Below are positions 5,028 through 39,700 of a DNA stretch of 64,000 bases, one piece after another. The stretch lies in assembly GCA_965197965.1 (NCBI GenBank), contig OZ240235.1, positions 549,820 through 613,819 on the forward strand, in the 5' to 3' direction. The notes beneath the pieces are model-generated. The model was not told where the DNA came from. It did not search any database and saw only the letters and a program-made list of their open reading frames with translations. How positions within the stretch are numbered: position 1 is the first letter of the stretch; each line of letters begins with the position of its first letter. Made by a program: the position numbers and the translations under genes. Origin of the DNA: Dehalococcoidia bacterium (GTDB lineage: Bacteria; Chloroflexota; Dehalococcoidia; Lucifugimonadales; QGNO01).

Positions 5028-5927
5028 ATGAAGCTGGCCTACTTTGACGACTTTAGACTAGGTGTAGTCAGAGGCGAACACGTATTTGACGTAACTAACG
5101 TTGTGCAGGACATCCCGCACGTGGGCCCTCACGATCTGGTCAACTACCTCATAGAAGCGTTCGATACATACAGAGAGCGCTTAGAAGAGGCGTCCACCGG
5201 TTCTGAAGGGATCCCCATCAGCCAGGTCGCGTTCCGCCCGCCGTTGCCCAGGCCCGGCAAGATCCTTTGTATGGCTATCAACTACCTGGAGCACGGGCCG
5301 GAATCGGACATGCCTCCTATAAACGGCTTCCTCAAATCTCCCAACTCGGTGGCCGGAGACGGCGACACCGTGGAGTTACCCCCGGATCAGGCCTCCATAT
5401 TTGAACACGAGGCCGAATTGGGGGTTGTCATCGGCAAACGGGCCAGCAGAGTGAGTCAAGCCGATGCCTACAACTACGTCTTTGGCTACGTCAACCTGGT
5501 AGATGTATCGGCCCGCGACCTGGGCAATCCGCCGTACGACAGCTATTTCCCCATCAAGTCATGGCACAACTTCGCTCCCATAGGCCCTTACCTGGTCTCC
5601 GGCGACGAAATCAGCCAGCCCCAGAATACCCGCGTACGGCTCTGGGTCAGCGGCAAGCTGAACCAGGACTTCTATACCAGCGCCATGGCTCACAAGATAC
5701 CGGAATGCATCGAATGGGCATCCACCATCACCACTCTTGACCCCGGCGATATCATAGCCACGGGGACTCACCATCTTGACCTGGGACCGCTGCAAGACGG
5801 CGATGCGGTGGAGATGGAAGCGGATGGCTTGGGCAGGCTTCACTTCAAGGTAGTGGATCCTCTTAAACGTGAATGGCCCCGTGAAACACGCGCCGAAAAA
5901 GCCGCACGGGAAGCAGCAGGGAGATAG
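5028..5927 (+). CDS. Fumarylacetoacetate hydrolase (FAH) family protein
   Basis: 299 aa. The FAH-type core motifs are FEHEAELGVVIGK, FGYVNLVDVSARD and LDPGDIIATGT. Confidence 0.85.
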   Translation: MKLAYFDDFRLGVVRGEHVFDVTNVVQDIPHVGPHDLVNYLIEAFDTYRERLEEASTGSEGIPISQVAFRPPLPRPGKILCMAINYLEHGPESDMPPINGFLKSPNSVAGDGDTVELPPDQASIFEHEAELGVVIGKRASRVSQADAYNYVFGYVNLVDVSARDLGNPPYDSYFPIKSWHNFAPIGPYLVSGDEISQPQNTRVRLWVSGKLNQDFYTSAMAHKIPECIEWASTITTLDPGDIIATGTHHLDLGPLQDGDAVEMEADGLGRLHFKVVDPLKREWPRETRAEKAAREAAGR

Positions 5928-5930
5928 ACA

Positions 5931-6821
5931 GTGAAACTCGTTCTTTTCAACAGCACAAGACTAGGCGTGGTCAGCAACGGAAACGTTGTTGATATCACAG
6001 ACGCCGTTCAGGATATTCCTCACGTCACAACACAAGACCTGGTCAACGGAGTCATAGCCGGGTTCGACTCGCTTAAAAGCAAGCTGGAGGATGCGGCATC
6101 GTCCTCATCGGGGGTACCTCTGGAAAGCGTAACGCTGTCGCCTCCCCTGCCCAGGCCGGGCAAGCTCATCGCTATGGCGGTGAACTACATGGAGAACGGC
6201 GCTCTTAAAGAGAAGCCGCCCATCCATGCTTTTCTCAAATCACGCAACGCCGTCATTGGCCCGGGAGACACCATCGTTCTGCCAGAAGCTGAGGCTAACG
6301 TATTCCATCACGAGGCGGAACTGGGCGTAGTCATTGGCAAAGAGGCCACCAATGTAAAAGCCGAACAGGCTTTCGATTACGTGTTCGGCTATCTCAACTT
6401 CATCGACGTCTCGGCGAGGGGGCTCGGGGGCGGCAACTTCTTCTGGGTCAAGAGCTGGGACACCTTTGCCCCTATAGGTCCCTACCTTGTCAGCAAAGAC
6501 GAAATCGAGGACCCGCAAGACCTACCCATAAAGCTATGGGTGAACAATGAAATCCGGCAAGACTTGTCCACCAGCGATATGGCCCATGGCGTGGCCCGGT
6601 GTGTGGAATGGGTTTCGTCTATAACCACCCTTAACCCCGGCGACATCATTGCTACAGGAACCAACCATCAGGGTCTCGGCGCCATTCAGGACGGAGATGT
6701 CATCGATATGGAGATACAGGGTCTGGGCAGGCTAACCGTAAACGTACGGGATGACCGGAAGCGCGAGTGGCCCCGCAACGTAGACCAGCGTTTCGCAGAT
6801 AGAATGGCGGGACGGGCCTAG
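5931..6821 (+). CDS. FAH family protein, tandem paralog of the preceding gene
   Basis: 296 aa with a GTG start 3 nt after the upstream stop. It is collinear with the 5028..5927 product throughout (MKL..F....LGVV, PPLPRPGK, HHEAELGVVIGK, LNPGDIIATGT). Confidence 0.85.
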   Translation: MKLVLFNSTRLGVVSNGNVVDITDAVQDIPHVTTQDLVNGVIAGFDSLKSKLEDAASSSSGVPLESVTLSPPLPRPGKLIAMAVNYMENGALKEKPPIHAFLKSRNAVIGPGDTIVLPEAEANVFHHEAELGVVIGKEATNVKAEQAFDYVFGYLNFIDVSARGLGGGNFFWVKSWDTFAPIGPYLVSKDEIEDPQDLPIKLWVNNEIRQDLSTSDMAHGVARCVEWVSSITTLNPGDIIATGTNHQGLGAIQDGDVIDMEIQGLGRLTVNVRDDRKREWPRNVDQRFADRMAGRA

Positions 6822-6822
6822 C

Positions 6823-7521
6823 TTGCGCCTCAGCACGGTCCTGTTTGACTTCGACGATACTCTCGTTGACTCACTACAGGCGCGTGTGAATGCTCTTGGC
6901 TTGGTTTTCAATCGTGCGGGCATAGATGTCGATGCCGAAGCGTTCATGCTCGGGCTGAAGGGCCGCCAGCTGAAAAATGTGTTGGATGACCTGGAGGCGC
7001 GCGACGGGCGCAATTTAGGGCTTTTTGAAGCGTACAGAAGCACCTACTGGGGCAAACCGCCGGGCACCATCAAGCTGCTTCCAGGTGTGGCAGAGATGCT
7101 TCAGGAGCTGCACCATAGAGGCTTCAAACTGGGGATAGTGACCCAGAAGGGGCGCGACGTTGAGATAGACGGCCGGCGGGTCGGCGCTTGGCACGAGCTG
7201 GCAGAGCTCGGCATGGCGCATATGTTCCCCGTCATGGTGGGCTTTGAGGACGTGAGTCGTTACAAACCCGACCCTGAAGGAATACACATGGCGCTGGACC
7301 AGATCCAAGCGGATGCAGCAGCAACGATGTTCGTGGGTGACGGCGCCGCCGATATAGAAGCGGCACAGGCGGCAGGATGCTGGAGCTGTCACGCTGTATG
7401 GGGTATTCCACAAGAACAGCGCGTTCTGGACGGCGTGAGGCCGCACGCGGTGGCGGAGTCGCCCCAGGCGCTGCTTGATTTCGTTCTAACATTTAGTCAG
7501 GAGGTCGTGAGGCATGGCTGA
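6823..7521 (+). CDS. HAD-superfamily hydrolase (phosphatase-like)
   Basis: 232 aa with a non-ATG (TTG) start. HAD motif I is LFDFDDTLVDS and the late motif is FVGDGAADIEAA. The stop is TGA at 7519-7521, a genuine TGA stop. Confidence 0.8.
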   Translation: MRLSTVLFDFDDTLVDSLQARVNALGLVFNRAGIDVDAEAFMLGLKGRQLKNVLDDLEARDGRNLGLFEAYRSTYWGKPPGTIKLLPGVAEMLQELHHRGFKLGIVTQKGRDVEIDGRRVGAWHELAELGMAHMFPVMVGFEDVSRYKPDPEGIHMALDQIQADAAATMFVGDGAADIEAAQAAGCWSCHAVWGIPQEQRVLDGVRPHAVAESPQALLDFVLTFSQEVVRHG

Positions 7522-8227
7522 AGAGTCCAAAGAGCAGCCCTACAAACGAGGCATGGTGGTTGTAGCCCATCCGGATGACGCCGAGTTCGGTTGCTCTGCT
7601 TCCGTGGCCAGGTGGGTCAGAGAAGGCATCGAATTCGTCTACGTCCTTTGCACCGATGGCAGCAAAGGCACCTCCGACCGAAACATCACGTCAGAACAAC
7701 TGGTTGAAATACGCAAGCAGGAGCAGATAAGCGCGGGCAAAGTCCTAGGCCTCAAAGACGTGGTCTTTCTGGGCTATCCCGACGGTTATCTACAGCCCAC
7801 CCTAGACCTGCGCCGCGATATCGCCCGTGAGATACGCCGGTTCCGTCCCGATATCCTCATCACAACCAGTCCCACGCGTACGCTGACTGGCACCGGCTAC
7901 CTGGGCCATCCCGACCATTTCGCGGCGGGCGAAGCCGCGCTATCCGCCGTCTACCCGGCCGCACGGGACCACCTGACCTTTCCCGAACTGCTGGAACAGG
8001 GTTTGGAGCCTCACAAAGTACGGGAGGTCCTGATCATAGGGCACGACATATCCAATAAGTGGGTAGACGTTACTTCCGGCATAGACATCGCAATTCAGGC
8101 CCTGCTGGAGCACAAGAGCCAGGTTGGCGGCACCGCCGGGGAGCGCATGAAAGAGTGGAAGAGCCAGGCTGGCAAAGAGCACGGAATGGAATACGCCGAG
8201 GGATTCAAGAGCTTTACGTTGTCCTAG
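7514..8227 (+). CDS. PIG-L/LmbE family N-acetylglucosaminyl deacetylase
   Basis: 237 aa. It has VVAHPDDAEFG and GHPDH, the zinc-site motifs characteristic of PIG-L deacetylases. It overlaps the upstream gene by 8 nt. Confidence 0.8.
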   Translation: MAEESKEQPYKRGMVVVAHPDDAEFGCSASVARWVREGIEFVYVLCTDGSKGTSDRNITSEQLVEIRKQEQISAGKVLGLKDVVFLGYPDGYLQPTLDLRRDIAREIRRFRPDILITTSPTRTLTGTGYLGHPDHFAAGEAALSAVYPAARDHLTFPELLEQGLEPHKVREVLIIGHDISNKWVDVTSGIDIAIQALLEHKSQVGGTAGERMKEWKSQAGKEHGMEYAEGFKSFTLS

Positions 8228-8241
8228 CTCAGCTGCCTAAT

Positions 8242-9225
8242 CTATTTGTTGGCAGCGCGCTCCGCCCGTATCCGCTTGTAGTCCTCACGTCTCCAGCGAT
8301 AGGGCAAGCTGACGACCGTCCCCGCTTCTGTGGCCGTTTCCAGAACGTTCAGCGCGTCTTCCAGTATCACACGATGCTGGTCCGCATTGTTCGGCTCACC
8401 CATGGGCCGGCCAAATGGGAAGCGGACGTGGGCAACGCGAGGGGGATGAATCTTCTCCGCCATCTCCTTGTACATCATGACGAGCACCGTGGAGATGCCC
8501 TCCCCTTCTATTGCCCTTGCTATCAGTCCGCCGGACCGGTTGCACACCGGTCAGGTGGACGTGAGCACCACAGCCTGAACGCCGTCGGCCTTCAGACGTT
8601 TCGCCACTTCGGGAGCGGTCTCAGTGCTGAGCAGGTCGGGACGTTGTATGTACCCCATGAACGAGTAGTTGGTGCTCGCGAGACTCCCTATAACCCCTTC
8701 CTGTTCCAGTTCTACCATTCTGTCCAACGGGAAGACGCAGTTGATGTCTTCACGAGGCCCGGAGAGGTCGTAATGCAGGTGGGCCAGGCGAAGCTCATCG
8801 CGTGGAACATCCTTGGGAATCGCCCGCCACGACCAGTCGCCCAGGCCTTCCGGCCCATCCGTCTGGTAGGGTTCCTGACCCTCCACGTAAACGCCGCCTG
8901 TGGTAATCAAGGCGAATTTGGCCTGGTTCAGCGGCGCCGCAACAGGCGACCACGGTATTCCTTCCACATCCACGCCGCGGGCCCGTGCTCCGGCCAGAGC
9001 TCTGCCCCGTTCTTCCCATACCTCCAGGTAGTCCCATAGCGCCGCGGCGTCTCCAGCTTCCCTACTCTCAACCGCCTTTTGCAGCAGTCCGTTGAGAAAC
9101 TCCGCCTGCTCCTCCTCGCTCATGTGCGTGCCCACGTAGCGAATGAAGGAAAAAGCCGCCGTATTTGCGGGTGTCCTCAGTATCCGCCCCATGAGCGCTT
9201 TAACGTCTGTTGATTGCTCCGTCAT
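8242..9225 (-). CDS. Glycine/sarcosine/betaine/D-proline reductase selenoprotein-B (GRDB) family protein, with in-frame UGA read as selenocysteine
   Basis: Track ORFs 8551..9225 (224 aa) and 8242..8547 (101 aa) are in the same frame, separated only by TGA (8553-8551) plus CCG. The joined ~327-aa product reads ...ADGVQAVVLTST-U-PVCNRSGGLIARAIEGEGISTVLV, which contains a UxxC motif. ALITTGGV, NCVFPLDRMVELEQEGVIGSLA and FPFGRPMGEP fit the GRDB family as I remember it. Confidence 0.75.
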
Positions 9226-16430: not shown

Positions 16431-17978
16431 TCAGGGTTCCGTGTACAACTCAGTATCCGGATGGAACTGGAACCACGCGAACCAGAACGACATGTGCGTG
16501 GGTATCCGCGCCAGCTTCTCCGACCCGTCTGTCGTGTTGACTAGAAACTCCTCGGTCACCTCCCATGTCCCGCCCGCGTCGTCCACTATCACGGACGGTA
16601 TGCCGGAGCCGCCGCCGTCCGGCGCCAGCCTGAACGACCTGCCTCCGCGGTAGTACGCCCTCGCGCCCTCGCTTCCAGCCGACCCCAGCACCAATATCTC
16701 CTCTCCTCCCACCACGTCGTTGACTATGCGGCTCCTCCGCAGCGCATCGGAGGAGTAAGCCTTGTAGCTCTCGTTCAGCTGTACCCCTAGCACTATGTCC
16801 TTTGTTTCAAGCCGTTCATCCCGTTGTGGGACTGGAAACATCGTCTCAGGCGAATTGAAGTATCTGTAGTAGATCGCCTGGGGATTCTCCTCGGGCACGT
16901 AGAATTCGGCGGGATACAGTCCCGTCTCCTGAGCCAGCACCGTAGTATCGGGATGAAGCTCCAGCCACTCCTGCCACGTCGTGAGCATAACAGGGAAGAA
17001 GTCCAGCTTTATCCCAGAGTCCCATAATGGCCCTATGATCGGCTCCATGGTGAGATGGTTCCACAGCGAGTTGGTCAGCCGGTCGTACATGACCTTGTTG
17101 CTGCGATACAGCATCCCCGACGTGCCGAAAGTGGTTGGCTCTCCGTTGATCCTGGCGGAATACACTATTCCGCTGCCGCAGAGCGTTCAGTAAGCCAGGG
17201 CAATCGGTTCGCCCCCCAACACGTCATTGGCCATTTCGTGGGCGTTCACAATGCGCAGCGGGTACGCCCTGTGCTCTCCGTTGATGGACACGCCAAAGAC
17301 CCGATCGGTAGGCAGCAAATAGTCCTGCTCCCCCGCCGAAACGACCGGGGCGTTTTGAAGATCCGGGATCCCGTCTGGCCGGACTCCTCCCCACGCGATT
17401 TCAAATACGTTTATTCGCGAGCCTTGCGCTGCCGGCTCCAGAAACTCGGCGAACCTGGGGTCAATCAGGCTCATGATCTCGCTCTTCCACCGCACGTACC
17501 CATCGGGCGGATGGTACTCGTCGGCGTTGTTGCCTAACCACTCCATCCACTCATTCCAGGCGCGGTAGCCACCCCTCAACTCCTGCCCCGTTATCGCCGA
17601 GATGCCACCGTTGAGCTCCTCTATTATGTCATCGTCCCCAAAGAAGAAGCGGAGCGTCTCTATCATTACTGGGACCATCGACTTATCTTTATGGAAGATG
17701 GCGAGTGCGATGGCCTCGTGCGTATCAAAGAGATCGTAGTCCCGGTCCGAGAAGAGCCGGAACATGTTCTCGGTGGAGTCGTAGCCCGCCGCAGGAGTCG
17801 GCGCAGCCGTCGTCGGGGTCTGGGTAGGTGAAGCCGTCGATGTCTCCTCGGCCGGCACGGTGGGCTCTTCCGTACCGGAGCAGGCAACAGCAGCAGCCGC
17901 CATAAACCCGGCCAACAGCAGTCCGAAATAAGGCAAGAGCCTGCTCAAAGTTTTCTTTCCTGGGACGTTTCGATTCAA
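16431..17978 (-). CDS. DUF3179 domain protein with in-frame UGA (candidate selenocysteine) at the first Cys of the family CxxC motif
   Basis: Track ORFs 17187..18128 and 16431..17165 are in frame. The junction reads ...NDVLGGEPIALAY-U(TGA 17189-17187)-TLCGSGIVYSARINGEPTTFGTSGMLYRSNKVMYDRLTNSLW, and the C-terminus reads FWFAWFQFHPDT. DUF3179 proteins have YCPLC(N/G)SG at this place. The open frame extends to 18128 but overlaps the divergent methyltransferase. A TTG at 17978 precedes a signal/lipoprotein-like segment (LLLAGFMAAAAVAC), so the true start is uncertain. Confidence 0.7.
17155..17173 (-). promoter_or_regulatory. Candidate bacterial SECIS hairpin for the DUF3179 UGA
   Basis: The mRNA reads UGA-ACGCUCUGCGGCA-GCGGAAUA-GUG-UAUUCCGC. 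This is a perfect 8-bp stem with a GUG apical loop, starting 13 nt 3' of the UGA. Confidence 0.55.
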
Positions 17979-18064
17979 CCTAGTAGTTGTAACTCTAATT
18001 ATATTGCATGCGACCCTATTATCCACCTCTACCGGTTCCGCTTTCGTAGTATCATGGATTGGAC

Positions 18065-18688
18065 ATGCCGAAGAACCCCAAGACGCTAGTCGAGGAAGGC
18101 TACGACCAAGTAGCCGAGGCCTACTCACGCCTTGAAGGCGACAATGAGTGGCCCAGGATGAAATGGCTGGGTAAGGTCCTAGCCAGACTGGACCCTGGGA
18201 GCGCCGTTCTTGACCTGGGCTGTGGATCCGGCGACCCGGCGGACATTGAGATCGCCAGGCTTCACCGGATTACCGGTGTGGACATATCCAACGTTCAAGT
18301 AGAACTGGCGCGTCGGAATGTTCCCCAAGGGAACTTCATCCACAGAGACCTCGGGGCGCTGGATTTCCCCGAAAGGTCTTTCGATGCCGTGGTCTCCTTC
18401 TATACGCTGGAGCACCTTCCCCGGGAGCAGCATGGCGAAATACTCAAGCGCATCCACGGCTGGCTGCAACCGGGGGGACTGCTGCTGTTTAGCCACGAAG
18501 CTGGCGACATGAACGATGTAACCGGTCAGTGGCTTGGCGTTCCCATGTTCCTCAGCGTATTTGATCCCGAGACGATGCGAAAACTTGTCCAGGACTCCGG
18601 TTTCCAGCTTGTTGAGACGGGGATCGAAAGCCAGTTGGAGCAAGGTCGAGAAGTACCCTACCTTTGGATATTAGCCCAGAGACGGTGA
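18065..18688 (+). CDS. Class I SAM-dependent methyltransferase
   Basis: About 207 aa. Motif I is VLDLGCGSGDP and the post-I acidic residue is in GVDIS. The track ORF starts at TTG 18059; ATG 18065 is more likely. Confidence 0.85.
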   Translation: MPKNPKTLVEEGYDQVAEAYSRLEGDNEWPRMKWLGKVLARLDPGSAVLDLGCGSGDPADIEIARLHRITGVDISNVQVELARRNVPQGNFIHRDLGALDFPERSFDAVVSFYTLEHLPREQHGEILKRIHGWLQPGGLLLFSHEAGDMNDVTGQWLGVPMFLSVFDPETMRKLVQDSGFQLVETGIESQLEQGREVPYLWILAQRR

Positions 18689-18709
18689 CATCGATCGAGA
18701 GGAATAACT

Positions 18710-19270
18710 TTGCGATACATTAGCAGGAATGAGTGGTTCTTCTACGGATTCATTGCCGCCGCCGTGCTGGCGTTATCGCTGCCCCTGTTCCCCTACCGGT
18801 GGCACACCTTCCTGCATATCGCTGGCGCGGTGGTTTTCCTTGGAAACATCATAGTCACCGCTGCATGGATGTTCATGGCGGAGCGAACGCATAGCGCCAA
18901 TGTCATACACTTCTCCGCCAAGGCAGTTATCCGTGCCGACCTCCTCTTCACCCTACCTGGTGTGCTCCTGGTACTGTTGAACGGGCTTGTCATGGTGTTT
19001 GACCGCTGGGGTGGCTGGAGCGCGCTTCACCAGTTGTCCTGGATCAGTGTCGCTCTGGCCCTGTTCACTGCATCCGGCGTGATATGGGTGGGAATACTTA
19101 TCCCTGTCCAGCATCGCATGGCTGTCTTCTCAAACCCGGCGGACTACCCCAACTCTCTGCCTCAGCAATTCTCCTCGGCCCTCCGCAGGTGGTACTTCTG
19201 GGGTGCGATTGCAATTGCCTTGCCCATCTGCTCGCTCTACCTGATGGTCAACAAACCAGCCTTAGGCTAG
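18710..19270 (+). CDS. Integral membrane protein (DUF2269-like)
   Basis: 186 aa with four to five hydrophobic helices, including FLHIAGAVVFLGNIIVTAAW. The family assignment is from memory only. Confidence 0.5.
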   Translation: MRYISRNEWFFYGFIAAAVLALSLPLFPYRWHTFLHIAGAVVFLGNIIVTAAWMFMAERTHSANVIHFSAKAVIRADLLFTLPGVLLVLLNGLVMVFDRWGGWSALHQLSWISVALALFTASGVIWVGILIPVQHRMAVFSNPADYPNSLPQQFSSALRRWYFWGAIAIALPICSLYLMVNKPALG

Positions 19271-19628
19271 GGTTGGGGGAACGCCGTACTCTCGGATCGA
19301 ACGTCCAACGTTCCGCGCCCGTCTCGGCGTCGAGCGCCGCTACCCGCGTGTACATCGTGGAGAGGTAGAGGATACCATCGACCATGATGGGAGTCGACTG
19401 GAATGGACCCGGCTGCGTGCCGTACTCTTCGAGAGGCGTCTCGTTCGGCTCCCACTTCCAGACAATCTCCAGTTCGCCGACGTTGGCGGCCGTGATTTCC
19501 TCGGCCTCCGAGTACTTGCTATGTGCCTGGTCGGAACCGACGGACGGCCAGCCGGTTGTTGGGTCAGGCTCTGGGCCGCATGCGACTGCGGCCGATATCA
19601 GGACTGTTGTGACAACAAGGCTCTTCAT
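19248..19628 (-). pseudogene. N-terminal fragment of a PQQ-dependent (quinoprotein) dehydrogenase
   Basis: 126 aa with a lipoprotein-like signal (ISAAVACG). ANVGELEIVWKWEP...PFQSTPIMVDGILYLSTMYTRVAALDAETGAERWTFDP matches the first propeller blades of quinoprotein dehydrogenases. These are normally 550 aa or more, and the rest is missing. The 3' end overlaps the convergent membrane-protein gene. Confidence 0.6.
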
Positions 19629-19768: not shown

Positions 19769-19843
19769 TGGTGGGCCCGGCTGGATTCGAACCAACGACC
19801 AATCGGTTATGAGCCGACCGCTCTGCCACTGAGCTACGGGCCC
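19769..19843 (-). tRNA. tRNA with CAU anticodon (Met, or lysidine-dependent Ile2)
   Basis: GGGCCCG-TA-GCTC-AGTGGCA-GAGC-G-GTCGG-CTCATAA-CCGAT-TGGTC-GTTGG-TTCGAAT-CCAGC-CGGGCCC-A-CCA folds into a full cloverleaf with encoded CCA. It is not initiator-like: 1-72 is paired and there is no GGG/CCC anticodon stem. The acceptor C4-G69/C5-G68 and the variable/T arm resemble E. coli ileX. Confidence 0.9.
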
Positions 19844-19979: not shown

Positions 19980-20438
19980 TCAGGATGCGCTGAACTTCTT
20001 TATCGCTTCCAACGACTCTTCGGCGTGTTGCTCCATGCTCTGAGCATCCTGGACAATGTGCCTGACCACTCCCTCTTTGTCTATGACGAACGTGACTCGG
20101 CTATCGCCAATGGTCTCCTCATTGAAGACCCCAAAAGCTCTGGAGGCTTCAAACTTGGGGAAGTCGGATACCAAAGGGAACTCCAGTCCACAGTGGCCGG
20201 CGAAGGCCCCCTGAGACGGTGCGGCGTCTGTGCTTGCACCCAGAACCTGGGTGTCCAGCTGCTGGAAGTCCGAGAGCAGGCTCTGGAACTTCCGCAGCTC
20301 CCGCTCTCAGCCGCCGGTGAAAGCCCTGGCGTAGAAGGCGATGACGAGGTTCTGCTTGCCTTTGAAATCCGCCAGCCTGATTTCCTGACGGTCGCCGGTA
20401 GTGAACCCAACGTCTGGGGTATGGTCACCTATGTTCAT
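19980..20438 (-). CDS. Peroxiredoxin (AhpC/TSA-Bcp type) with UGA/selenocysteine at the peroxidatic position
   Basis: My reverse translation from ATG 20438 reads MNIGDHTPDVGFTTGDRQEIRLADFKGKQNLVIAFYARAFTGG-U(TGA 20309-20307)-ERELRKFQSLLSDFQQLDTQVLGASTDAAPSQGAFAGHCGLEFPLVSDFPKFEASRAFGVFNEE.... Peroxiredoxins have FYPxAFTxxC(T/S)xE here. Only the last 64 aa appears in the ORF track (19980..20174). Confidence 0.8.
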
Positions 20439-29952: not shown

Positions 29953-31905
29953 TCATAGCCCTCCCATCACCACTGCCGTCGTACTCTCGCTGGTCAGCAA
30001 CTCAAAATTGCCGGCGTCGTCTGAGAACCGGACCCGCACCTTCATGACCTTGCCGTTGTCGGAAGCCTGGAGCGTGTATGTGGAACTCGTCGCCCCGTCG
30101 ATTTCCGTGTCGTCAGCCAGCCACTGGTATCTGTAGGACACGTTGTCCAGGCCGTCGGCGTCGGAGATTCCATCCGTGCTTGCCGTCAGGGTTTGTCCCA
30201 CCTGCGGCGTTCCACTGATGGTGGGGGCACCCGTGGCGGGGGAGTTGGAGACCTGCTGCTGTTCCACCACGCGGGCAGGTGTTGCCGTGACTTCAGTAGA
30301 TGGGTCACCATCGCCAACACCGTTCGCCGCGATGACCCGCACAGTATAAGAGACGCCGTTGGTCAAACCTGTGATGATATGTGAAGTTGCGGTGACCGTT
30401 TCCTCAGAGACGTCGTCCGGAGTTTCCCAGCTGTCCGAATCTTCCTTCCACTGCACTTTGTACCCGGTGATTGCCGTGCCGCCGTTGGAACGAGGCATTT
30501 CCCAGGACAGGGCAAGTTGAGCGTCACCAGGAGTGGCCGTCAGGTCATACGGGAACCGCGGCGAGTTAAAGACTAAGCCGAACCAGCGGTACCGCCTCGT
30601 CTCCATACCAAACCGTATCCCACCGGCGGCGTCACTGTCCTGGACCGCGGCGGACAGCAAGCCGACCTTGCCGTTGAACTGTATTTCACCGGCGAAGATT
30701 GGGGTCGCCGTAATCACTCCACTCGAAGTGTCTCCGGCGTTGAGGGTGACCGTCGTGCTGGACAGCGTAACTCTCTCGCCCCAAAGGGTGACTTCCAGGT
30801 TGGATGGAGCGGGTTTACTGAGGGTGACCTCCCAGGCAAAGGTATAGAACTCCTCGGCATCGCGCGATTCCAAACTTACCTCGATAGCGGTTACCGCCAT
30901 CTCTGTGACTTCAGCCGACGCTGCGTTGTCACCGTTCTGGTTGAATGCCAGCACTCGCACCGTGTAGGCGACGCCATCGGTCAAATCTGTGATGGTGTGC
31001 GACATTCCGGTCACTGTAGCCTCGGACACGTCGTCCGGAGTTACCCAGCTGCCCGAATCCTCCTTCCACTGCGCTTTGTATCCTTGTATCGGAGAACCGC
31101 CGTCGCTGGCAGGCGCTTCCCAGGACACGGCAAGTTCCTGGCTTTCACCCGAAGAGACCTTCAGGTTCCGAGGCGCGTCCTCCGCTGTGGTCGCCACTAC
31201 CGCAGTCGCAGCGCTCGTGAGCGTTTCGTTGTTGTCGGCGTCGTCGGTGAAGTTCACCTGCACCTTGATGGTCTTTCCCATGTCTTCGTCGGACAGCGTG
31301 TATGTGGCCTCCAACATGCCCCAAATGTCTATGTCCCCGACCCCCCGCGCGCCCGGAATGTCTGTGTCTTCAACCCCGTCGTTGGATATCCACTGATAGA
31401 TAAGGAAGAATCGGCTGTACCCCTCTTCGTCCTCGATGTCCGACATGGAGACTGTGAGTGTCTGCCCTGCCTGTGCTACTCCAATGATGACAGGCGCGCC
31501 CGTCGCGGGCGTGTTCGCAGCGCGGGTCACCGTCACGGTGTACGTCTGTGTGGTGTTCCCGTCTTCGGCGGTTACTTCTACTGTGATGACGTTGCTACCT
31601 ACACTCAGTGAAACGGTGCCATCCGTGTCTTCAACTCCGCCGAGCTTTGTGACGTAGCTGGCCCCTGAGTGGCTCACGGTGGGAGTGACGGTGGTCTGTT
31701 TCACGCCATTGGCGACGCTGGCAGTGTAAGAAGTGGTGCCTGATGCGAATGTGGCCAAGTCCACGTCACTCAGCGTCAGGTCACTGAGCGTGGCGTCGCT
31801 GCTCTGGCCCTCGGCCAGGACCGTATGGGTGAGGAAGACCAACCCCACCGCGAGGGCAATGAGCAAGATTCGAACAGTTAGGCTGATTCGCTTTGTTGTG
31901 CCCAT
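29953..31905 (-). CDS. Secreted protein: cadherin-like beta-sandwich + 2 FN3 + 2 'YQW' modules
   Basis: 650 aa with a signal peptide. ATLSDLTLSDVDL...TTQTYTVTVTR is a cadherin-like beta-sandwich pattern. Two FN3-like units are present (SWE(A/M)P...GG..I.GYK.QWKEDS.SW...YTVRV.A.N). Two ~88-aa YQW modules are present. It ends AVVMGGL-TGA. Confidence 0.75.
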   Translation of the reverse strand: MGTTKRISLTVRILLIALAVGLVFLTHTVLAEGQSSDATLSDLTLSDVDLATFASGTTSYTASVANGVKQTTVTPTVSHSGASYVTKLGGVEDTDGTVSLSVGSNVITVEVTAEDGNTTQTYTVTVTRAANTPATGAPVIIGVAQAGQTLTVSMSDIEDEEGYSRFFLIYQWISNDGVEDTDIPGARGVGDIDIWGMLEATYTLSDEDMGKTIKVQVNFTDDADNNETLTSAATAVVATTAEDAPRNLKVSSGESQELAVSWEAPASDGGSPIQGYKAQWKEDSGSWVTPDDVSEATVTGMSHTITDLTDGVAYTVRVLAFNQNGDNAASAEVTEMAVTAIEVSLESRDAEEFYTFAWEVTLSKPAPSNLEVTLWGERVTLSSTTVTLNAGDTSSGVITATPIFAGEIQFNGKVGLLSAAVQDSDAAGGIRFGMETRRYRWFGLVFNSPRFPYDLTATPGDAQLALSWEMPRSNGGTAITGYKVQWKEDSDSWETPDDVSEETVTATSHIITGLTNGVSYTVRVIAANGVGDGDPSTEVTATPARVVEQQQVSNSPATGAPTISGTPQVGQTLTASTDGISDADGLDNVSYRYQWLADDTEIDGATSSTYTLQASDNGKVMKVRVRFSDDAGNFELLTSESTTAVVMGGL

Positions 31906-31918
31906 ATCTAGTCTCCTT

Positions 31919-33232
31919 CTACAGGCCTCCCACGAGCGTCAGGTCACTGCCGGCGACTATCTCAAGACCTATGAGCCTGGTCCCACTCTTAGCAACCGAA
32001 TCGACGCTGACCGTGACCGTGCCGGAGGCCGTCACGGTGATGGTCTCGCTCTCCAAGGCGCCGCGAGCGATTGTGACAGTCTCGGCGGAAAGCGTGCCTC
32101 CTATGGCCGAAAGGGTTACCGACAACGAAGACGGCGCTCCCTGGTCGATACTGACGACCACACCGGCGCCTTTCTTTTCCAACTCCGCGGTGATGGTGAA
32201 CGGCGCCCCGGGGTTTTGGTCGAATTCCACGCTATCCAGATTTCCGAGGCCTTCGAACACGCCTGCGGGCAATGTTGATATCTGGTTATGACTCATGACT
32301 AAGGAATTCAAATCGCCCAGACCCTCGAACGCGCCTGAGGGCAACGCCGTGATTTTGTTGTTGAATAGGGTCAGTTGCTGCAGTTCGCCAAGGTCGCCGA
32401 ATACGCCCGAGGGCAACGCCGTGAGCTCGTTCCTGCTCAGGTACAACCACGTCAAATTGCCGAGGCCGTCGAACACCCCCTCGGGCAACGCGGTGATCTT
32501 GTTCTGGTGCAGGTTCAGGGCCATCAGGTTGGTGAGCCCGTCGAACACCTCCTCCGGCAATGCAGCGACCGAATTCCTGGGGAGCTCCAGTGAGTTGAGG
32601 CTAGTTAGCCCATCGAACACTTCCTCCGGGAGCGCGCTGACCTTGTTGGCGGTGAATGTGAGATCCTTCAGGTTGGTCAGGCCATCGAATATTTCCTCAG
32701 GCAGCGCCGTAAGACCGTTCTGGTACAGCTTCAGGTTCTGTAGGTTGGTCAGGCCGTCGAACAGGTTCTCCGGGAGCGAGCTCACCTCGGTGAAGGTCAG
32801 GTTCAGGCGTTTGAGTTCGGTGAGTCCGGAGAAGATGTCCTCGGGCAGCGAGGTGATCTGGTTGTCGTCCAGTTTCAGTTCCTGCAACCCGCTGAGACCG
32901 GCGAAGTCCCCGGACTTGAGGGAGGTCACCCCCATATTGGACAGAGCAAGCGTCCCGCTTATCCCTGACAGGTTGGCGTCGGTGACGTCCCCGCAGGCGG
33001 TAACGTCTGACAGCTTGGCAAGGATGGCGTCCTGGACCTTCTGGGTGCGGCCGCAGATACCCGGCGTGGGAGTGGGAGAGGGTGTGGGGGTAACGGCTTG
33101 CGCCAGGGCCATGCCGTGATTCGTGGGGAGGGCGAGACCTGCCGCCAGTGCGGCAGCGACCGCAAGAGCCGCGAGCAGGATAGCTGCACGCTTCAAGCTG
33201 ACCCAGCTCGTCAATACGGTCAATCTGCTCAT
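31919..33232 (-). CDS. Secreted leucine-rich-repeat (LRR) protein
   Basis: 437 aa with a signal peptide. It has the Cys-containing cap GICGRTQKVQDAILAKLSDVTACGDVTDANLSGIS and about 11 LRRs (L..L.L..N.(I/L)(T/S)(S/A)LPE..F.GL). The C-terminal beta-rich cap is NPGAPFTITAELEKKG.... It ends LTLVGGL-TAG. Confidence 0.8.
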   Translation of the reverse strand: MSRLTVLTSWVSLKRAAILLAALAVAAALAAGLALPTNHGMALAQAVTPTPSPTPTPGICGRTQKVQDAILAKLSDVTACGDVTDANLSGISGTLALSNMGVTSLKSGDFAGLSGLQELKLDDNQITSLPEDIFSGLTELKRLNLTFTEVSSLPENLFDGLTNLQNLKLYQNGLTALPEEIFDGLTNLKDLTFTANKVSALPEEVFDGLTSLNSLELPRNSVAALPEEVFDGLTNLMALNLHQNKITALPEGVFDGLGNLTWLYLSRNELTALPSGVFGDLGELQQLTLFNNKITALPSGAFEGLGDLNSLVMSHNQISTLPAGVFEGLGNLDSVEFDQNPGAPFTITAELEKKGAGVVVSIDQGAPSSLSVTLSAIGGTLSAETVTIARGALESETITVTASGTVTVSVDSVAKSGTRLIGLEIVAGSDLTLVGGL

Positions 33233-33272
33233 CGATTCTCCTGAATGTCAGGCCGATGCAATTGGCAGCTCC

Positions 33273-34415
33273 CTACAACCCGCCCATAACCACCGCCGTG
33301 GTTCCCTCGCTTGTCAGCGATTCTTCGTAGCCCGCGTCGTCCGTGAAGCTCACTCGCACCTTGATGACCTTGCCGTTGTCCGATGACTGGAGCGTGTAGG
33401 TGGAGCTCGTAGCCCCATCGATTTCGGTGTCCCTGCTCGACAGCCACTGGTAGCTGTAGGACACGTTGTCCAAGCCGTCAGCGTCAGAGATTTCAGACGT
33501 GTCTGCTGTCAAAGTCTGTCCCACCTGCGCCGTTCCGCTGATTGTCGGCGCACCAGTGGCGGAGGAGTTCTGAACGGTAACCGTCAGGTAGTACAGGTGG
33601 CCTGCGCCGTTGTTTACGTTTCCTGTATTGATGCCGATGCCAAGCCGGTTTTCGCCCCGGCCCAGATTAATCTGAAAGCCATTTGTGTCGTCGTCGGCAT
33701 CGTTGAGGACGATACCGGTAGTGGTCCCGTTCCCGTAGGAGTAGTTGCAGGTTCCTTGCAACGGTCCACCCCAGCAACCTGAGATTACTCCCCAGATCGG
33801 GTTCTTGACGAAGACGGTAAAGTAGCCGGTCAAGACGGTGGATTCCAAGGTGATGGATTCAGTATCGGTGGGGACTTCAGCGTCATATCGATTTATTCCC
33901 CTATCAAAGGAAGGGTTCAGAGTTCCAGAACTGATGGTCAGCGCCGTCAGTGGCGCCGACGAGTAAGTGCCTTCCCTGAGATTGAACGCCCCCATGGCAA
34001 TTTGAGTTGAGGAAACGAGGTTGTTCGCTTCGTTTTCGCCGCAGTACAGTTCCACTTCGACTTTCGGAAGTCTGGTAACGCCGCTCGGACTAAGGGGGAT
34101 TTCATGGGAGATTGCCTTGGTTGCCTCATTGCTGCCGGAGGCCACTGAGCCGAGGTGGGTGCGGGACGTCTCCGCGTCGTTGCTAGGGGGTCTGACCGCC
34201 AGGTAGAGGTTGTAATCGGATGAGCAGTTGTCCGGATCTGACCAGGAGACGGTGTCATCGGCGTCAGTTATCACAACCGTGATGTACGCTTCGGGGTCAG
34301 ACCCGCTCTGAGCGGCAACGTGAGAGGGACTACCCGACACCACAAGAGTCAGCCCTAACACGGCCCCAATGAGGGCCACCACTATCGGAATGCCTGCTCG
34401 ATTCACTATGTTCAT
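33273..34415 (-). CDS. Secreted protein: unknown N-domain + cadherin-like beta-sandwich + C-terminal YQW module
   Basis: 380 aa with a signal peptide. LTALTISSGTLNPSFDRGINRYDAEVPTDTESITLE is present. The C-terminus ATGAPTISGTAQVGQTLTADTSEISDADGLDNVSYSYQW...KVIKVRVSFTDDAGYEESLTSEGTTAVVMGGL is followed by TAG. Confidence 0.65.
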   Translation of the reverse strand: MNIVNRAGIPIVVALIGAVLGLTLVVSGSPSHVAAQSGSDPEAYITVVITDADDTVSWSDPDNCSSDYNLYLAVRPPSNDAETSRTHLGSVASGSNEATKAISHEIPLSPSGVTRLPKVEVELYCGENEANNLVSSTQIAMGAFNLREGTYSSAPLTALTISSGTLNPSFDRGINRYDAEVPTDTESITLESTVLTGYFTVFVKNPIWGVISGCWGGPLQGTCNYSYGNGTTTGIVLNDADDDTNGFQINLGRGENRLGIGINTGNVNNGAGHLYYLTVTVQNSSATGAPTISGTAQVGQTLTADTSEISDADGLDNVSYSYQWLSSRDTEIDGATSSTYTLQSSDNGKVIKVRVSFTDDAGYEESLTSEGTTAVVMGGL

Positions 34416-34474
34416 CTCGCCTCTCTCCTATCTCAGGTTTGATCTTCGGACAGACGTCTGCCTGGTTCCGATTC

Positions 34475-36442
34475 CTACAGCCCACCCATCACCACTGCTG
34501 CCGTTCCTATGCTTGTCAGGGACTCCTCGTTGCCCGCGTCGTCGGTGAAGGTGACCCTGACCTTTATGACCTTGCCGTTGTCGGTTGACTGGACGGTGTA
34601 GATGGAGTTCGTCGCGTCGTTGATTTCGGTATCGTCAGCCAGCCACTGGTAGCTATAGCTCACGTTGGTCAGACCGTCGGCGTCGGAGATCCCGGACGTG
34701 CTTGCCGTCAGGGTCTGGCCAACTTGTGCGGTTCCACTAATGGTGGGAGCGCCTGTTGCCGGAGTGTTGGCCTGCGACGCAGACGAGAGGGTGAGGCTAT
34801 CGCCAAGGCCGGTCTGGATGCCCTGGTATGAACCCTCCAGGAAGGCGGAGGCAACCACGGAGACCGTCACGCCGTCGTCATCGCTTATCGGGGAGGTGAT
34901 GACACCGCTCTCCAGATCGCCGCCGTTTACGGAGACGATCAGGTTGGAAGAAAGCACCCCGGCTTTGAAGTTCAGGGTGACCGACATGTTGAAGGGAGCG
35001 CCCTCGGCGATCTTGACCACCACGCCGTTGTCGCCCCGCTGCTCCAACTCCGCCGTGAACGTGAAGGGTGTTCCGGGGTTGTTGCCCATGTAGAGGGTTT
35101 CCAGGTCGCCAAGGTCCTGAAAAATCCCATCGGGCAATGCATTCAGTTTGTTGTTGGTGAATATCAACCTGTCGAGGTTGGTGAGGCCGTCGAACAGGTC
35201 CTCGGGCAATGCAGTAATCGGGTTGGTGGAGAGCACTAAGTTTTCCAGGCTGCTGAGGCCGTCGAACACGTCCTCCGGCAGTGCAGTCAGCTGGTTGTTG
35301 TGCAGACGCAGGTCCGTCAGGCTGGTGAGCCCGTCGAATACCTCCTTGTGCAGCTCCCTTATCTGGTTAGTTCCCCCCAAGGCCAGGATTTGCAGGCTGG
35401 TCAGTCCGTCGAATACGTCCTCGGGCAGTGCCGTCAGGTCGAGGAACAGGTACAGCCGTTGCAGATTGCCGAGTCCCTCGAATACGTCCTTGGGCACCGA
35501 CCTGATGTAGGAGGAGCCGGTCGGTTGAAGCCACGTCATGGAGCTGAGTCCAGCGAAGTCCCCGGACTTGATGGACGTGGCGCTTGTGAAGCTGACGACC
35601 AACTTGGTTATGCCGGCCAGGTGCGCGTCCGTGACGTCGGCGCAGTCGCTGACGTCGGACAGCAGGGCCAGAATGGCGTCCTGCACCTCCTGGGTCCGGC
35701 CGCAGATGCCCAGAGGAGCGGCCAGCGTGAGTTCAAGATCGTCGGCCTCTTCCCACGTGAGGCCAAAGTAGCTTGAATAGTCGGTGGCGCTGAAGTCGGA
35801 CGACTCCACGCTCACGGTCACCTGCACGTCGGCGGTCTGTACCCGGCTCTGGTCGCTGGGGGAGAGGCTCACAGCATCGCTCTTGATGCTGCCTCCCTCA
35901 ACTGTGACCGCCGTCGAGGACAGTGTTCCGCCCTCGGCGGACAGCGTGATTTCCATGTCGAAGGGCGCGCCCTCGGCGACCTTGACCACCACCGAGTTCG
36001 AGCCCTCCTGCTCCAGCGTCATCGTGAGGCTGAAGGGAGACCCCGTATTGAAGTTCAGCCACAGGGTGTCGAGGCTCTCGAGGCCCTCGAAGATGCCGTC
36101 CGGTAGATCGCTCAGGTCGTTGGTGTCGAGATAGAGCTGCTCCAGGCCGGACAACCCCTTGAAGTCTCCGGTCTTGAGCGCAGAAATGCTCTTGTCCGAA
36201 AGGGTCAGGGCGCCCGTTATGCCTGCCAGGTGTGAGTCGGTGACATTGGCGCATTCGCTAACGTCGGACAGCTTGGCGAGAATGGCATCTCGCACTTCCT
36301 GGGTGCGCTCGCAGATGCCGGAAGACTGGGCGAGGACCGTGCTGCTCGGCGGGATGGACACTGAGGCGGCGACGACGGCCATCACCAGCAGCGCCATGGC
36401 TACCGCAGTCTTGGTTCGCATTTTAGGTCTTCGAATTGTCAT
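34475..36442 (-). CDS. Secreted double-LRR protein with C-terminal YQW module
   Basis: 655 aa with a signal peptide. It has two GIC(E/G)RTQEV(R/Q)DAILA.LSDVS.CA.VTD.HLAGIT caps, each followed by LRRs and an NPG(T/S)PF(T/S)... cap, then a YQW module. It ends AAVVMGGL-TAG. Confidence 0.8.
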   Translation of the reverse strand: MTIRRPKMRTKTAVAMALLVMAVVAASVSIPPSSTVLAQSSGICERTQEVRDAILAKLSDVSECANVTDSHLAGITGALTLSDKSISALKTGDFKGLSGLEQLYLDTNDLSDLPDGIFEGLESLDTLWLNFNTGSPFSLTMTLEQEGSNSVVVKVAEGAPFDMEITLSAEGGTLSSTAVTVEGGSIKSDAVSLSPSDQSRVQTADVQVTVSVESSDFSATDYSSYFGLTWEEADDLELTLAAPLGICGRTQEVQDAILALLSDVSDCADVTDAHLAGITKLVVSFTSATSIKSGDFAGLSSMTWLQPTGSSYIRSVPKDVFEGLGNLQRLYLFLDLTALPEDVFDGLTSLQILALGGTNQIRELHKEVFDGLTSLTDLRLHNNQLTALPEDVFDGLSSLENLVLSTNPITALPEDLFDGLTNLDRLIFTNNKLNALPDGIFQDLGDLETLYMGNNPGTPFTFTAELEQRGDNGVVVKIAEGAPFNMSVTLNFKAGVLSSNLIVSVNGGDLESGVITSPISDDDGVTVSVVASAFLEGSYQGIQTGLGDSLTLSSASQANTPATGAPTISGTAQVGQTLTASTSGISDADGLTNVSYSYQWLADDTEINDATNSIYTVQSTDNGKVIKVRVTFTDDAGNEESLTSIGTAAVVMGGL

Positions 36443-36790: not shown

Positions 36791-39700
36791 CTACTGCCCC
36801 GGCCCGGAAACAGTGAACACCAGACTATTGGACAGCTTTCTGCCGTCCTCCGTGCAGACGGCTCCCTGAGCCTCGCAGTCCGTCGTGACGGGCAGAACGA
36901 TGGTCACATCCTCGCTGGAGTCTGGCCTCACCATTATTCGCCACTTGATGTTGCTTGGCTTGTCCATGCGTTGAGCCTTTAGAATGGACCCACCGGTCAC
37001 AGTAAAGGCATGGAACTTTAGGGTCTTGTAGCTGAGCGGAATTTCCTCGCTGAACCGGATGTCGAATGTGAAGACATTCGAGGCGCCGTGGTGGCCGGCC
37101 ACGGGGAACACCAGGCGGACGGTCAGCGGCGTGGGCTTCGCCGCCACCGCCGCCGTCGCATCGCTGGTCAGCGTCTCATCGTTGTCGGCATCGTCGCGGA
37201 AGGAGACCCGCACTTGGATTGTCTGCCCTTTCTGCATGTCCTTGAGGGTGTAGCTGGAGCCGGTGGCCCCCGAGATGTCCGACCCTCCGGCGGTCCACTG
37301 GTAGCTGTACGAGACGTTGGTCAGCCCGTCCTGGTCGGCGATGTTAGACGTGTCAGCGGTCAGCGTCTGGTCCACCTGGGGCGTCCCGCCGATGGTGGGC
37401 AGTCCGGTGGCCGGAGAGTTGGGCTTGGCCGCAACCACCCCTGTCGCCGCGCTGGTCAGCGATTCGATGTTGTCCCGGTCGTCGGCGAATCTCACCCTTA
37501 CCGTGACGGTCTTGCCCTGCTCGTTGGCGGTGAGGGTGTAGGTCGAGCGGGTGGCCCCGATGGTCAGGCCCCCGGCCCTCCACTGGTAGAAGAAGGTGGC
37601 GTTCGTTATCCCGTCGAGGTCGGAGATGTTCGAGGTGTCCGCCGTCAGCGTCTGGCCCACGCGGGCCGTACCGTCGATGGTGGGCTTGCCGGTGGCCTGA
37701 CGGTTGGGTGCCGCAACCACCGCGCCCGTCGCATCGCTGGTCCGGGCCTCTGCGTTGTTCCGGTCGTCGATGAAGAACACCCTGACCTGGATGGTCTGCC
37801 CCTGCTCGCTGGAGGTGAGCAGGTAGCTGGGTCCGGTGGCTCCGTCGATGTCCGTACCGCCGGAAATCCACTGGTAGCCGTAGGACACGTTGGTCAGCCC
37901 GTCCTGGTCGTCTATGGGCGAGGTGTCCGCAGTCAACGTCTGGTCCACCTGGGGGGTCCCGCCGATGGTGGGCTTGCCCGTGGCCGGGGTGTTCTCGGCT
38001 GGCTCAATCACTCTGACGGCAACCTCATCCCCCTCGGACAAGTCCAGTCCCGGGTCGTTCCACTGGAACTGGATGATGGAGATGGAGTCCCTCTCCAGGG
38101 TCGATGCGTCGGTAGAGGCGAATTCGTCCGTCCCAACCACTAGGACAAAGTCGGCAGCCAATTTTGGCATCACTGAGAGAATCAGCTTGCCGTTCAGAAC
38201 CCCCAAGGCCCTGACGGTGTAGCTGGCATCGTCCAACGTGATGGTGTCGGACGAGAGAGCACCCAGGGTGTTGGTTTCCGGCAAAGACAGGAATGTCGTA
38301 TAGCCGGCAAAATTCTCTCCGCCCCCTACCGTCAAGGTCGCGGACCATATCGGTTCTTCCTGTGGTGTTCCAGAGGCTTCGGCCGACGTGGGAACGCCAA
38401 ACACCCAGGGGCGGGCCTGTTTGATGGACAGAACATCGTCGCTGGTGATCTTGAACTCGATTTCCATTGCGAAGGGTTCGTCGGGTCCGGGGTTGTACAG
38501 ACCCTCGAAATGGTCATGGATATCCTGGAGATGCCGGCGCAACTGGTCAATTTGAGCATCGCTCATGAGGAGTTGTCCTCGCGGCACCTGGTTGGAGGTT
38601 ACCAGGGTGGTGTATGAACCGGACAGGTCCAACAGGATTTCCTCGGGCACCGAGTGTGCGTCGGGATTGGTGACCAGGTCCTCACCCAGTTGCGTGTTGA
38701 CGTAGTAGCTCCCGTCCGTTTCGTAGATAGGGTCGAAGCTGACGGCCACGCCGTTGGCCAGCTCGTCCGAGTAGTTGGGATGGACCAGCACCCCCATCGC
38801 CGTCGCCAGGTGGTCGATGCGGTGGAACTCGCGTTCAGTGAATGCCCGGAAGTTCCACAGGCTGGCCCACACCCCTTTGATGGACTTGTCGATGCCGTCC
38901 TCCTCCGTCTCCTCCGGGTCCTGGGTCTTGGAGTCGTACAGCCCGGCGCCGCTGAAGCCCGGCAGGTCTTCGTTGTTGGTGCTGGACCGGTATCGCAGCG
39001 ATTGCCCTTCAGGGTAGGTGGCGTGCATCTCCTCCAGCGCGTCGATGATCCAGTCGGGCGTCTCCCCCTTCTTTATCTTCTTGCGGAGTTTCTTGAGTTC
39101 TTTCTCTTGAGTGTCATAGTCCGACTGGAAGTCCGGGTCTTCCAGCATCTCTTCGATATCGTCATAGAACCCGTTGTGCTTCATGAACTCGTCGTAGAAG
39201 TAGAAGGGCACCACGAACCCGTCGGGGACGGTTCCGTCGGGAAAACCCAGCGTCCGCAGCACGGCCACGTTGGCCGCCTTGACTCCAAACGCATTCCAGT
39301 CGTCGAAGCCAATGTCGTCCAGGTCGGTGATCTGGGTGACTGTGAGGTCCCGTTCCGGCGTCTGGGTTCCGGGAGGGCGCGAAGCGGCGAAGTAGGCCTC
39401 GACTTCGGCGGGAGTGGCGGCGCGGATGGAGTAGCCGTCCGCCGTGACGCTGTAGTGGACGTATCTGCCGATGAGATCATCGATGTCGCCGTCGTCTAGG
39501 GCGTCGCGAATGAAGGCGTTGGGGACACCGTCCTGGACGGCCCGCAGGTTGACGTGGGAAAGCGGTGTCTGGGGTACGGTGGTGATGAGGCCGGCGACCC
39601 GGGAAAGCTCGTTGGGGATAGTCTCGTAGATCACCACGTCGCGCGGGTCGGGGCGTTCCTCCAGCGACATGAGCCTGAGGAAACCGTACCCTTCCCCAAC

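Follow-up and report, generated by a model that had tools for sequence, protein, structure and literature searches.

DUF3179 (PF11376) is tabulated among the selenoprotein families, with the motif UxxC/T (U denotes selenocysteine, Sec), in the reviews PMC9312934 (2022) and PMC13188914 (2026), and both credit Zhang & Gladyshev 2007 for the family. That study (PMC1976440) described six new families in the metagenome of Olavius symbionts and named them OS_HP1, OS_HP2 and so on; the mapping of the OS_HP naming onto DUF3179 rests on PMC9312934 and PMC13188914. Here we describe a DUF3179 gene that carries an in-frame TGA, on the minus strand of a 64,000-nucleotide stretch of a Dehalococcoidia genome (assembly GCA_965197965.1, contig OZ240235.1, positions 549,820 to 613,819). 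This whole stretch is referred to below as the window, and coordinates of the gene are positions within it. A preliminary description had presented the gene as a candidate undescribed selenoprotein, a claim that the two tabulations refute: it is an ordinary, mis-annotated member of the DUF3179 selenoprotein family already listed. The gene and the listed family have in common the same Pfam domain over the full profile, a Sec in the first position of U-x-x-C, and the occurrence of Cys homologues and paralogues. Compared by domain and motif, the Dehalococcoidia clade differs in a protein length of 505-540 residues, a putative lipoprotein signal and an extra helical N-domain.

Two other described systems invite comparison. 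The hairpin that follows the TGA resembles the Sec insertion sequence (SECIS) of the E. coli fdhF type in being a stem-loop within the coding sequence, 13-15 nt after the UGA, with a G-U in its apical loop; it differs in being shorter, with a consensus stem of 6 bp and a CGUGU loop, and no curated model matches it. The protein itself resembles the extracytoplasmic CxxC/UxxC oxidoreductase selenoproteins (DsbA-like, DsbG-like and Prx-like), which are exported, as the DUF3179 protein is predicted to be, and carry Sec at the N-terminal position of U-x-x-C. However, the predicted DUF3179 fold is not thioredoxin-like, and this resemblance is one of motif only. Our analysis indicates that UGA codon 254 of the DUF3179 gene is very probably a selenocysteine codon within one 505-residue protein.

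One gene interrupted by a single TGA

Two minus-strand open reading frames (ORFs), 17187..18128 and 16431..17165, lie in one frame with a lone TGA (17189-17187) between them. This arrangement, which the preliminary description had reported, was confirmed from the sequence and its translation, and the junction of the two ORFs reads ...GGEPIALAY*TLCGSGIVYSARINGEPTTFGTSG.... The main features of the gene are the following.

16431..17948, minus strand: complete coding sequence of the DUF3179 selenoprotein, 505 codons with predicted Sec at codon 254, from sequence and frame
17948-17946, minus strand: likely start codon TTG, with a Shine-Dalgarno-like AGGAAAG ahead of it
16452..17375, minus strand: DUF3179 (PF11376) domain, residues 192-499, spanning the TGA
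17187..17189, minus strand: in-frame UGA, predicted Sec254, in the first Cys column of AY-C-TLC-GSG (alignments A1 and A3)
17178..17180, minus strand: TGC, Cys257, partner Cys of U-T-L-C, 100% Cys at codon +3 in 157 TGA orthologues
16433-16431, minus strand: terminal TGA stop

The TTG at 17948 is the likely start because public gene calls begin the 253-residue N-terminal half there and because AGGAAAG precedes it; residues 1-505 of the resulting joined protein are matched by relatives. An alternative in-frame TTG at 17978, ten codons upstream, would lengthen the product to 515 residues. The GTG at 18128, which opens the 313-residue ORF, was rejected as a start: the extension that it would add overlaps a divergent methyltransferase gene and is not part of the protein. 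Of the earlier proposal of one joined protein of ~515-565 residues, the single protein thus stands and the length does not, 505 residues being likely (515 with the alternative TTG). With Sec inserted, the predicted junction peptide would be ...GGEPIALAY-U-TLCGSGIVYSAR.

In the public annotation the gene appears as two unnamed products of 253 and 244 residues. No NCBIfam model covers the DUF3179 family, which accounts for this split. That the two ORFs encode one protein is shown by the Pfam DUF3179 match, which runs across the TGA, and by the Cys homologues, which are full-length. When the TGA was read as Cys, the PF11376 profile matched the joined protein with an E-value of 3.6e-78 (263.4 bits against a cut-off of 27) from profile position 2 to 292 of 292, such that the gathering threshold is exceeded over the whole domain. 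A search of a protein collection with the joined protein returned 3495 relatives at E <= 1e-10, the best of which are full-length Cys forms of ~540 residues that share ~50% identity and cover 93-99% of the joined sequence.

The TGA lies in the first cysteine column of the family motif

Among 33 Cys homologues, C254 and C257 are each at least 90% conserved in alignments A1 and A3 (LAY-[C/TGA]-TLCGSG), and the motif is a nearly invariant C254-x-L-C257. In both alignments the TGA stands in the first of these columns, and the proposal that UGA stands in the place of the first CxxC cysteine was thereby borne out by the alignment check that had been suggested for it. The partner Cys is encoded by both TGC and TGT among the 157 TGA orthologues. 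One full-length homologue, P0100 (46% identity), reads AYDVQTGAA at the motif (AYCTLCGSG): both Cys residues are gone and the rest of the domain is kept.

The TGA is fixed across Dehalococcoidia orthologues

A metagenome search with a degenerate, TGA-specific DNA pattern, L-A-Y-TGA-[TVAI]-L-C-G-x-G-[IV], matched 93 stretches, and all 93 proved to be DUF3179 genes conserved on both sides of the TGA; by our own estimate ~2 matches would arise by chance. The ORF downstream of the TGA stays open for ~250 codons in these loci wherever the contig allows. A protein-guided scan, in which each species was represented by one genome, gave 80 loci with 51-92% identity, 79 of them labelled as Dehalococcoidia or Chloroflexota metagenome-assembled genomes (MAGs) and one as Actinomycetes. 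The Sec254 codon is a stop in 80/80 of the species genomes fetched and a Cys codon in 0/80. Overall, a TGA occupies this codon in 163 loci, representing 157 distinct 213-nt segments and including all 80 species genomes. Thus, the orthologue search that had been recommended recovered both TGA orthologues and Cys homologues, with conservation continuing past the TGA, and contradicted the decay or pair of independent genes that had been named as grounds for abandoning the idea, as the frame is intact in the 163 loci.

These loci also bear on the simplest alternative, namely that the gene is a pseudogene or that a sequencing or assembly error turned TGC or TGT into TGA. The TGA is indeed one base away from a Cys codon, and one orthologue, L001, is degraded by an insertion sequence (IS) and an internal duplication. 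However, the same TGA recurs in 163 independent loci, from various assemblies and species, with an intact frame under purifying selection. Neither a sequencing error nor a private pseudogene is compatible with this recurrence, and the probability that we attach to this explanation is negligible. The L001 orthologue (5563-6978), found through a match starting MYSARINGEP, still carries the TGA and the greater part of the hairpin; its 5′ end is truncated beside the IS (rve transposase), and ~80 residues are duplicated in tandem within it. Decay of this copy, or an artefact of assembly, is the probable cause.

Evidence of translation beyond the TGA

The codons that follow the TGA record selection on the protein. 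In the 157 segments, codons +1 to +4 encode T, L, C and G with 100% conservation as amino acids, and do so through 4, 5, 2 and 4 synonymous codons, respectively (entropy 0.5-1.7 bits). Being fixed as amino acids and variable in synonymous codons, these positions show that the stretch from the TGA to the next possible start, the GTG at codon +8, is translated.

This result is at odds with a split gene, in which ribosomes would stop at the UGA and restart at the GUG of the hairpin loop (codon +8), producing polypeptides of 253 and 244 residues that assemble. Public gene calls give exactly these two products, and the GUG is conserved in the hairpin loop. Yet the invariant but synonymously variable T-L-C-G at codons +1 to +4 is a signature of translation, the stretch between UGA and GUG holds the second Cys of the family motif, the Cys homologues are all single polypeptides, and no ribosome-binding site lies ahead of the GUG. 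Protein-level selection at codons +1 to +4 makes such a stop-and-restart arrangement very unlikely, and the gene is better described as one frame translated through its UGA. Annotation pipelines will keep breaking the DUF3179 gene in Dehalococcoidia, including in the 80 species genomes fetched here.

A conserved, covarying hairpin follows the TGA

The preliminary description had noted an uninterrupted 8-bp hairpin 13 nt 3′ of the UGA, which we confirm at 17173-17155.

17155..17173, minus strand: SECIS-like hairpin GCGGAAUA-GUG-UAUUCCGC, a perfect 8-bp stem 13 nt after the TGA
17172-17167 / 17161-17156, minus strand: conserved core of the hairpin, a 6-bp stem with the loop C/A-GUGU

By itself this hairpin is not above chance. 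The window contains 11 perfect hairpins with a stem of at least 8 bp and a loop of 3-8 nt, and the chance of finding such a hairpin within the 13-nt span after a given TGA is ~0.2%. It is the conservation in orthologues that lifts it. In the 157 segments, codons +5 to +10 are almost fixed as ACC GGA AUC GUG UAU UCC (GGA in 139/157, ATC in 141/150, GTG in 147/150, TAT in 151/157 and TCC in 144/147), and the synonymous-codon entropy over these positions is 0.14-0.55 bits, compared with 1.3-1.9 bits for Gly, Ser, Val and Leu codons elsewhere. Codon +9 favours TAT, whereas of the five other conserved Tyr positions four more often have TAC.

Numbered from the T of the TGA, the hairpin spans +14 to +35, and its helix pairs columns 18-23 with 29-34 around the loop CGUGU. 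Pair 18-34 covaries between U-A (27) and C-G (18), pair 21-31 occurs as A-U, G-U, G-C and C-G, and the stem has the compensatory variants GGGAU/AUCCC and GGCAU/AUGCC. In this register 75.6% of cells are paired, as opposed to 36-52% with the partner displaced by 1-3 columns, and the covariation score of 0.181 compares with at most 0.112 for the displaced registers and 0.142 for shuffles, with 0/500 shuffles reaching it. RNAalifold independently predicted the same six pairs. The hairpin in the window reaches 8 bp through a C-to-A change in the loop and a G-C pair at 17-35. Columns 6-13 and 45-52 could form a lower helix, with 73% pairing; this figure is confounded by amino-acid conservation, and we do not claim the helix, which is weakly supported.

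Seven Cys-form genes form 2-4 of the 6 pairs, compared with 6/6 in the Sec forms, and three of these seven Cys forms without the hairpin are paralogues from the same loci as Sec forms. Synonymous suppression and covariation in the orthologues, together with absence from the Cys forms, therefore substantiate the earlier statement that a SECIS-like hairpin follows the UGA; conservation with covariation and absence from Cys forms are features that it has in common with bacterial SECIS elements. Bacterial SECIS elements usually place their loop ~20 nt after the UGA and carry a G-U in it, and the hairpin here fits both. A SECIS model specific to the lineage could be built from the alignment of this hairpin.

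A second Sec-containing DUF3179 subfamily (YPARFLDWHEMFND...LAY-U-TLCGAGVLY) was found in the metagenome loci L004, L012, L026, L053, L085 and L089. Its hairpin, GUGCAGG-GGU-CCUGUAC, lies ~14-30 nt after the TGA, ~4 nt nearer to the UGA than that of the main type.

Decoding of the UGA

The general mechanism of bacterial Sec insertion is summarised in PMC9312934. Applied to this gene, the hairpin formed by the codons for (S/T)-G-I-V-Y-S, 13-15 nt downstream, would most likely act as a bacterial SECIS that recruits SelB-GTP with Sec-tRNA(Sec) to the ribosome, whereby the UGA would be read as Sec. The terminal UGA of the same gene, which lacks such a hairpin, would direct termination.

Several observations weigh against Sec at codon 254. 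None of tRNA-Sec, selA, selB and selD was found within the 64-kb window by a tRNA scan and inspection of the larger ORFs. The hairpin of the window, taken alone, is only ~2 standard deviations better than shuffles (-9.9 kcal/mol, z -1.97; -19.1 kcal/mol and z -1.8 in its 60-nt context). The consensus stem is short, 6 bp, with a consensus energy of -4.7 kcal/mol, and no Rfam family matches the hairpin region, either at the gathering threshold or at E-values up to 10.

The first and last of these points could suit a readthrough of the UGA outside the Sec pathway, by a near-cognate or suppressor tRNA (Trp, Cys or Gly) with the hairpin as a generic stimulator: the Sec machinery was not seen in the window and no curated SECIS model matches the hairpin. 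Against such readthrough, the UGA falls exactly at the redox-type Cys of the CxxC motif, in a family catalogued as UxxC/T selenoproteins, and two more genes of the window carry a UGA at the canonical Sec positions of known families (see below). Moreover, the class includes selenoprotein-rich genomes: in BSepDB, MAGs of the Dehalococcoidia have 46 and 49 selenoprotein genes and rank among the ten largest bacterial selenoproteomes. UGA also terminates other genes normally. A TGA ends 7 of the 26 Pfam-supported genes of the window, including the DUF3179 gene, and as an ordinary stop in these genes it argues against a global reassignment. We consequently give non-Sec readthrough a slim chance and take Sec to be the residue that is most probably inserted.

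A generic scan of the window for other TGA-joined ORFs was noisy, the window having a GC content of 60%, and was useful only after the contexts had been inspected. Candidates at 27845, 46756, 2335 and 25585 had no Cys-like context and were dropped. Two further genes of the window are interrupted by a TGA.

19980-20438, minus strand: AhpE-like 1-Cys peroxiredoxin gene, TGA at 20309-20307 (AFTGG-U-ERE), with a good Shine-Dalgarno sequence ahead
8242-9225, minus strand: GrdB/PrdB-like gene, TGA at 8553-8551 (...AVVLTST-U-PVCNRSGG...)

The peroxiredoxin gene, read through its TGA, matches the full AhpC/TSA profile, and its TGA falls opposite the Cys of AFTGIC, the peroxidatic Cys, in M. tuberculosis AhpE. 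A stem-loop of -27 kcal/mol lies 3′ of this TGA. The gene is probably the second selenoprotein gene of the window, to judge from these sequence features; no match to it was found in the flanks of the relatives' loci, where synteny ends at 18694. In the GrdB-like gene, the Pfam GRDB (selenoprotein B) match ends at the last profile position, which is the residue just before the TGA, and a hairpin, GACCGGU-GUGCA-ACCGGUC, begins within the UGA. A plus-strand ORF that overlies the gene (8059-9039) has no family match. This gene is probably the third selenoprotein gene of the window.

Protein architecture and possible chemistry

Two regions precede the DUF3179 domain in the joined protein.

17880..17948, minus strand: putative signal peptide with a lipobox-like A-V-A-C, Cys23 (codon 17882-17880), followed by a Pro/Thr-rich linker
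17379..17783, minus strand: N-terminal all-helical domain, residues ~56-190, ahead of the Pfam DUF3179 domain and conserved in the clade

The N-terminus reads MSRLLPYFGLLLAGFMAAAAVAC-SG, with Ala rather than Leu at position -3, and Cys23 is at least 90% conserved in alignment A3. Cys23 is the predicted lipid-anchored residue of a putative exported lipoprotein. The export that had been proposed for the protein agrees with this lipoprotein-type signal and its conserved Cys. In the helical N-domain, W134, W137, P148 and K155 are invariant in A3. The AlphaFold model of a Cys homologue, P0007 (pLDDT 86.5, the predicted local distance difference test score), has a disordered linker (pLDDT < 50 for residues 1-55), helices from H68 to H185 and a mostly β DUF3179 domain. 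This modelled helical and β architecture is not a thioredoxin fold around the CxxC. Foldseek comparison of the model with the PDB gave no match with E < 0.05 and no thioredoxin fold in the top 50, and a PDB sequence search retrieved no relative of the protein. On visual inspection, part of the DUF3179 domain is seen to be repeated, residues ~224-252 (17279-17193; GEHRAYPLRIVNAHEMANDVLGGEPIALAY) resembling residues ~393-421 (16772-16686; ESYKAYSSDALRRSRIVNDVVGGEEILVLG), which suggests two homologous β subdomains with the U/CxxC in the first only.

These features are consistent with a product that would be exported, held by a lipid on Cys23 at the external side of the membrane, and composed of a flexible Pro/Thr linker, the helical N-domain and a mostly β DUF3179 domain carrying U254-T-L-C257. 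A nucleophilic redox residue usually occupies the N-terminal position of such a pair, as Sec does in U-x-x-C. U254 and C257 would most likely constitute a selenol/thiol redox pair outside the membrane, in which the couple could form a selenenylsulfide; a soft-metal site, with the two residues as a ligand pair, is the less probable second choice. This is the weakest step of the proposed mechanism. The protein has no solved fold relative, its gene neighbours are not conserved, and the homologue P0100 has neither Cys, all of which speak against a firm assignment of chemistry. The commonest neighbour occurs at 12/80 loci, and the neighbourhood gives no functional hint. It had been suggested that a Sec form would point to redox or metal chemistry at the motif, which is reasonable and not new; the function of DUF3179 is no more testable from this gene than from the published Sec/Cys pairing.

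A DUF3179 paralogue lies upstream in 11/80 genome loci. In three loci, L175 (1063-6310), L177 (1878-6436) and L181 (1000-6257), a Cys-form paralogue stands directly upstream of the Sec form and is itself preceded by a DgaE-family (SelA-related) pyridoxal phosphate (PLP) enzyme; in L181 a channel of the formate/nitrite-transporter family lies between the PLP enzyme and the DUF3179 pair. The 'SelA' Pfam matches beside the Cys paralogues were not accepted as selA, as they belong to DgaE-family PLP lyases that score 47 bits where the selA cut-off is 268.

A more ambitious proposal is that the Dehalococcoidia clade represents an extracytoplasmic selenoenzyme of unrecognised chemistry, acting perhaps on reduced sulfur or selenium species or on a sponge-derived substrate, and that the CGUGU hairpin defines a lineage-specific SECIS class missed by the models. 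It draws on the Sec codon in every copy fetched, the predicted lipid anchor, the extra helical domain, the frequent Cys paralogue and the DgaE-like PLP enzyme in three genomes, one of them with the formate/nitrite-family channel. We regard it as rather unlikely. Possibly noteworthy at this locus are that Sec is fixed throughout the Dehalococcoidia clade, that the hairpin is short and typical of the lineage, and that the window is dense in selenoprotein genes.

Genomic surroundings

Nucleotide synteny with the closest relatives, at 84-89% identity, runs from 13449 and stops at 18694, which is possibly a rearrangement or insertion point. Beyond it, up to 19850, lie a gene for a DUF2269 membrane protein, an N-terminal fragment of a pyrroloquinoline quinone (PQQ) dehydrogenase (126 residues, 19248-19628), which overlaps the end of the DUF2269 gene, and a tRNA-Met gene (19769-19843).

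Elsewhere the window holds a cluster of eukaryote-like surface proteins (29953-36442, 36791-45976 and 52362-62072). Its members include leucine-rich repeat (LRR) proteins, an fn3/cadherin-like protein, a 3236-residue cadherin-repeat protein and a 3061-residue protein that combines LRR, glucose/sorbosone dehydrogenase and PPDK_N domains. Genomes of sponge symbionts typically encode eukaryote-like surface proteins of this kind. The three selenoprotein genes within 12 kb mark the source of the window as a selenoprotein-rich, probably sponge-associated member of the Dehalococcoidia.

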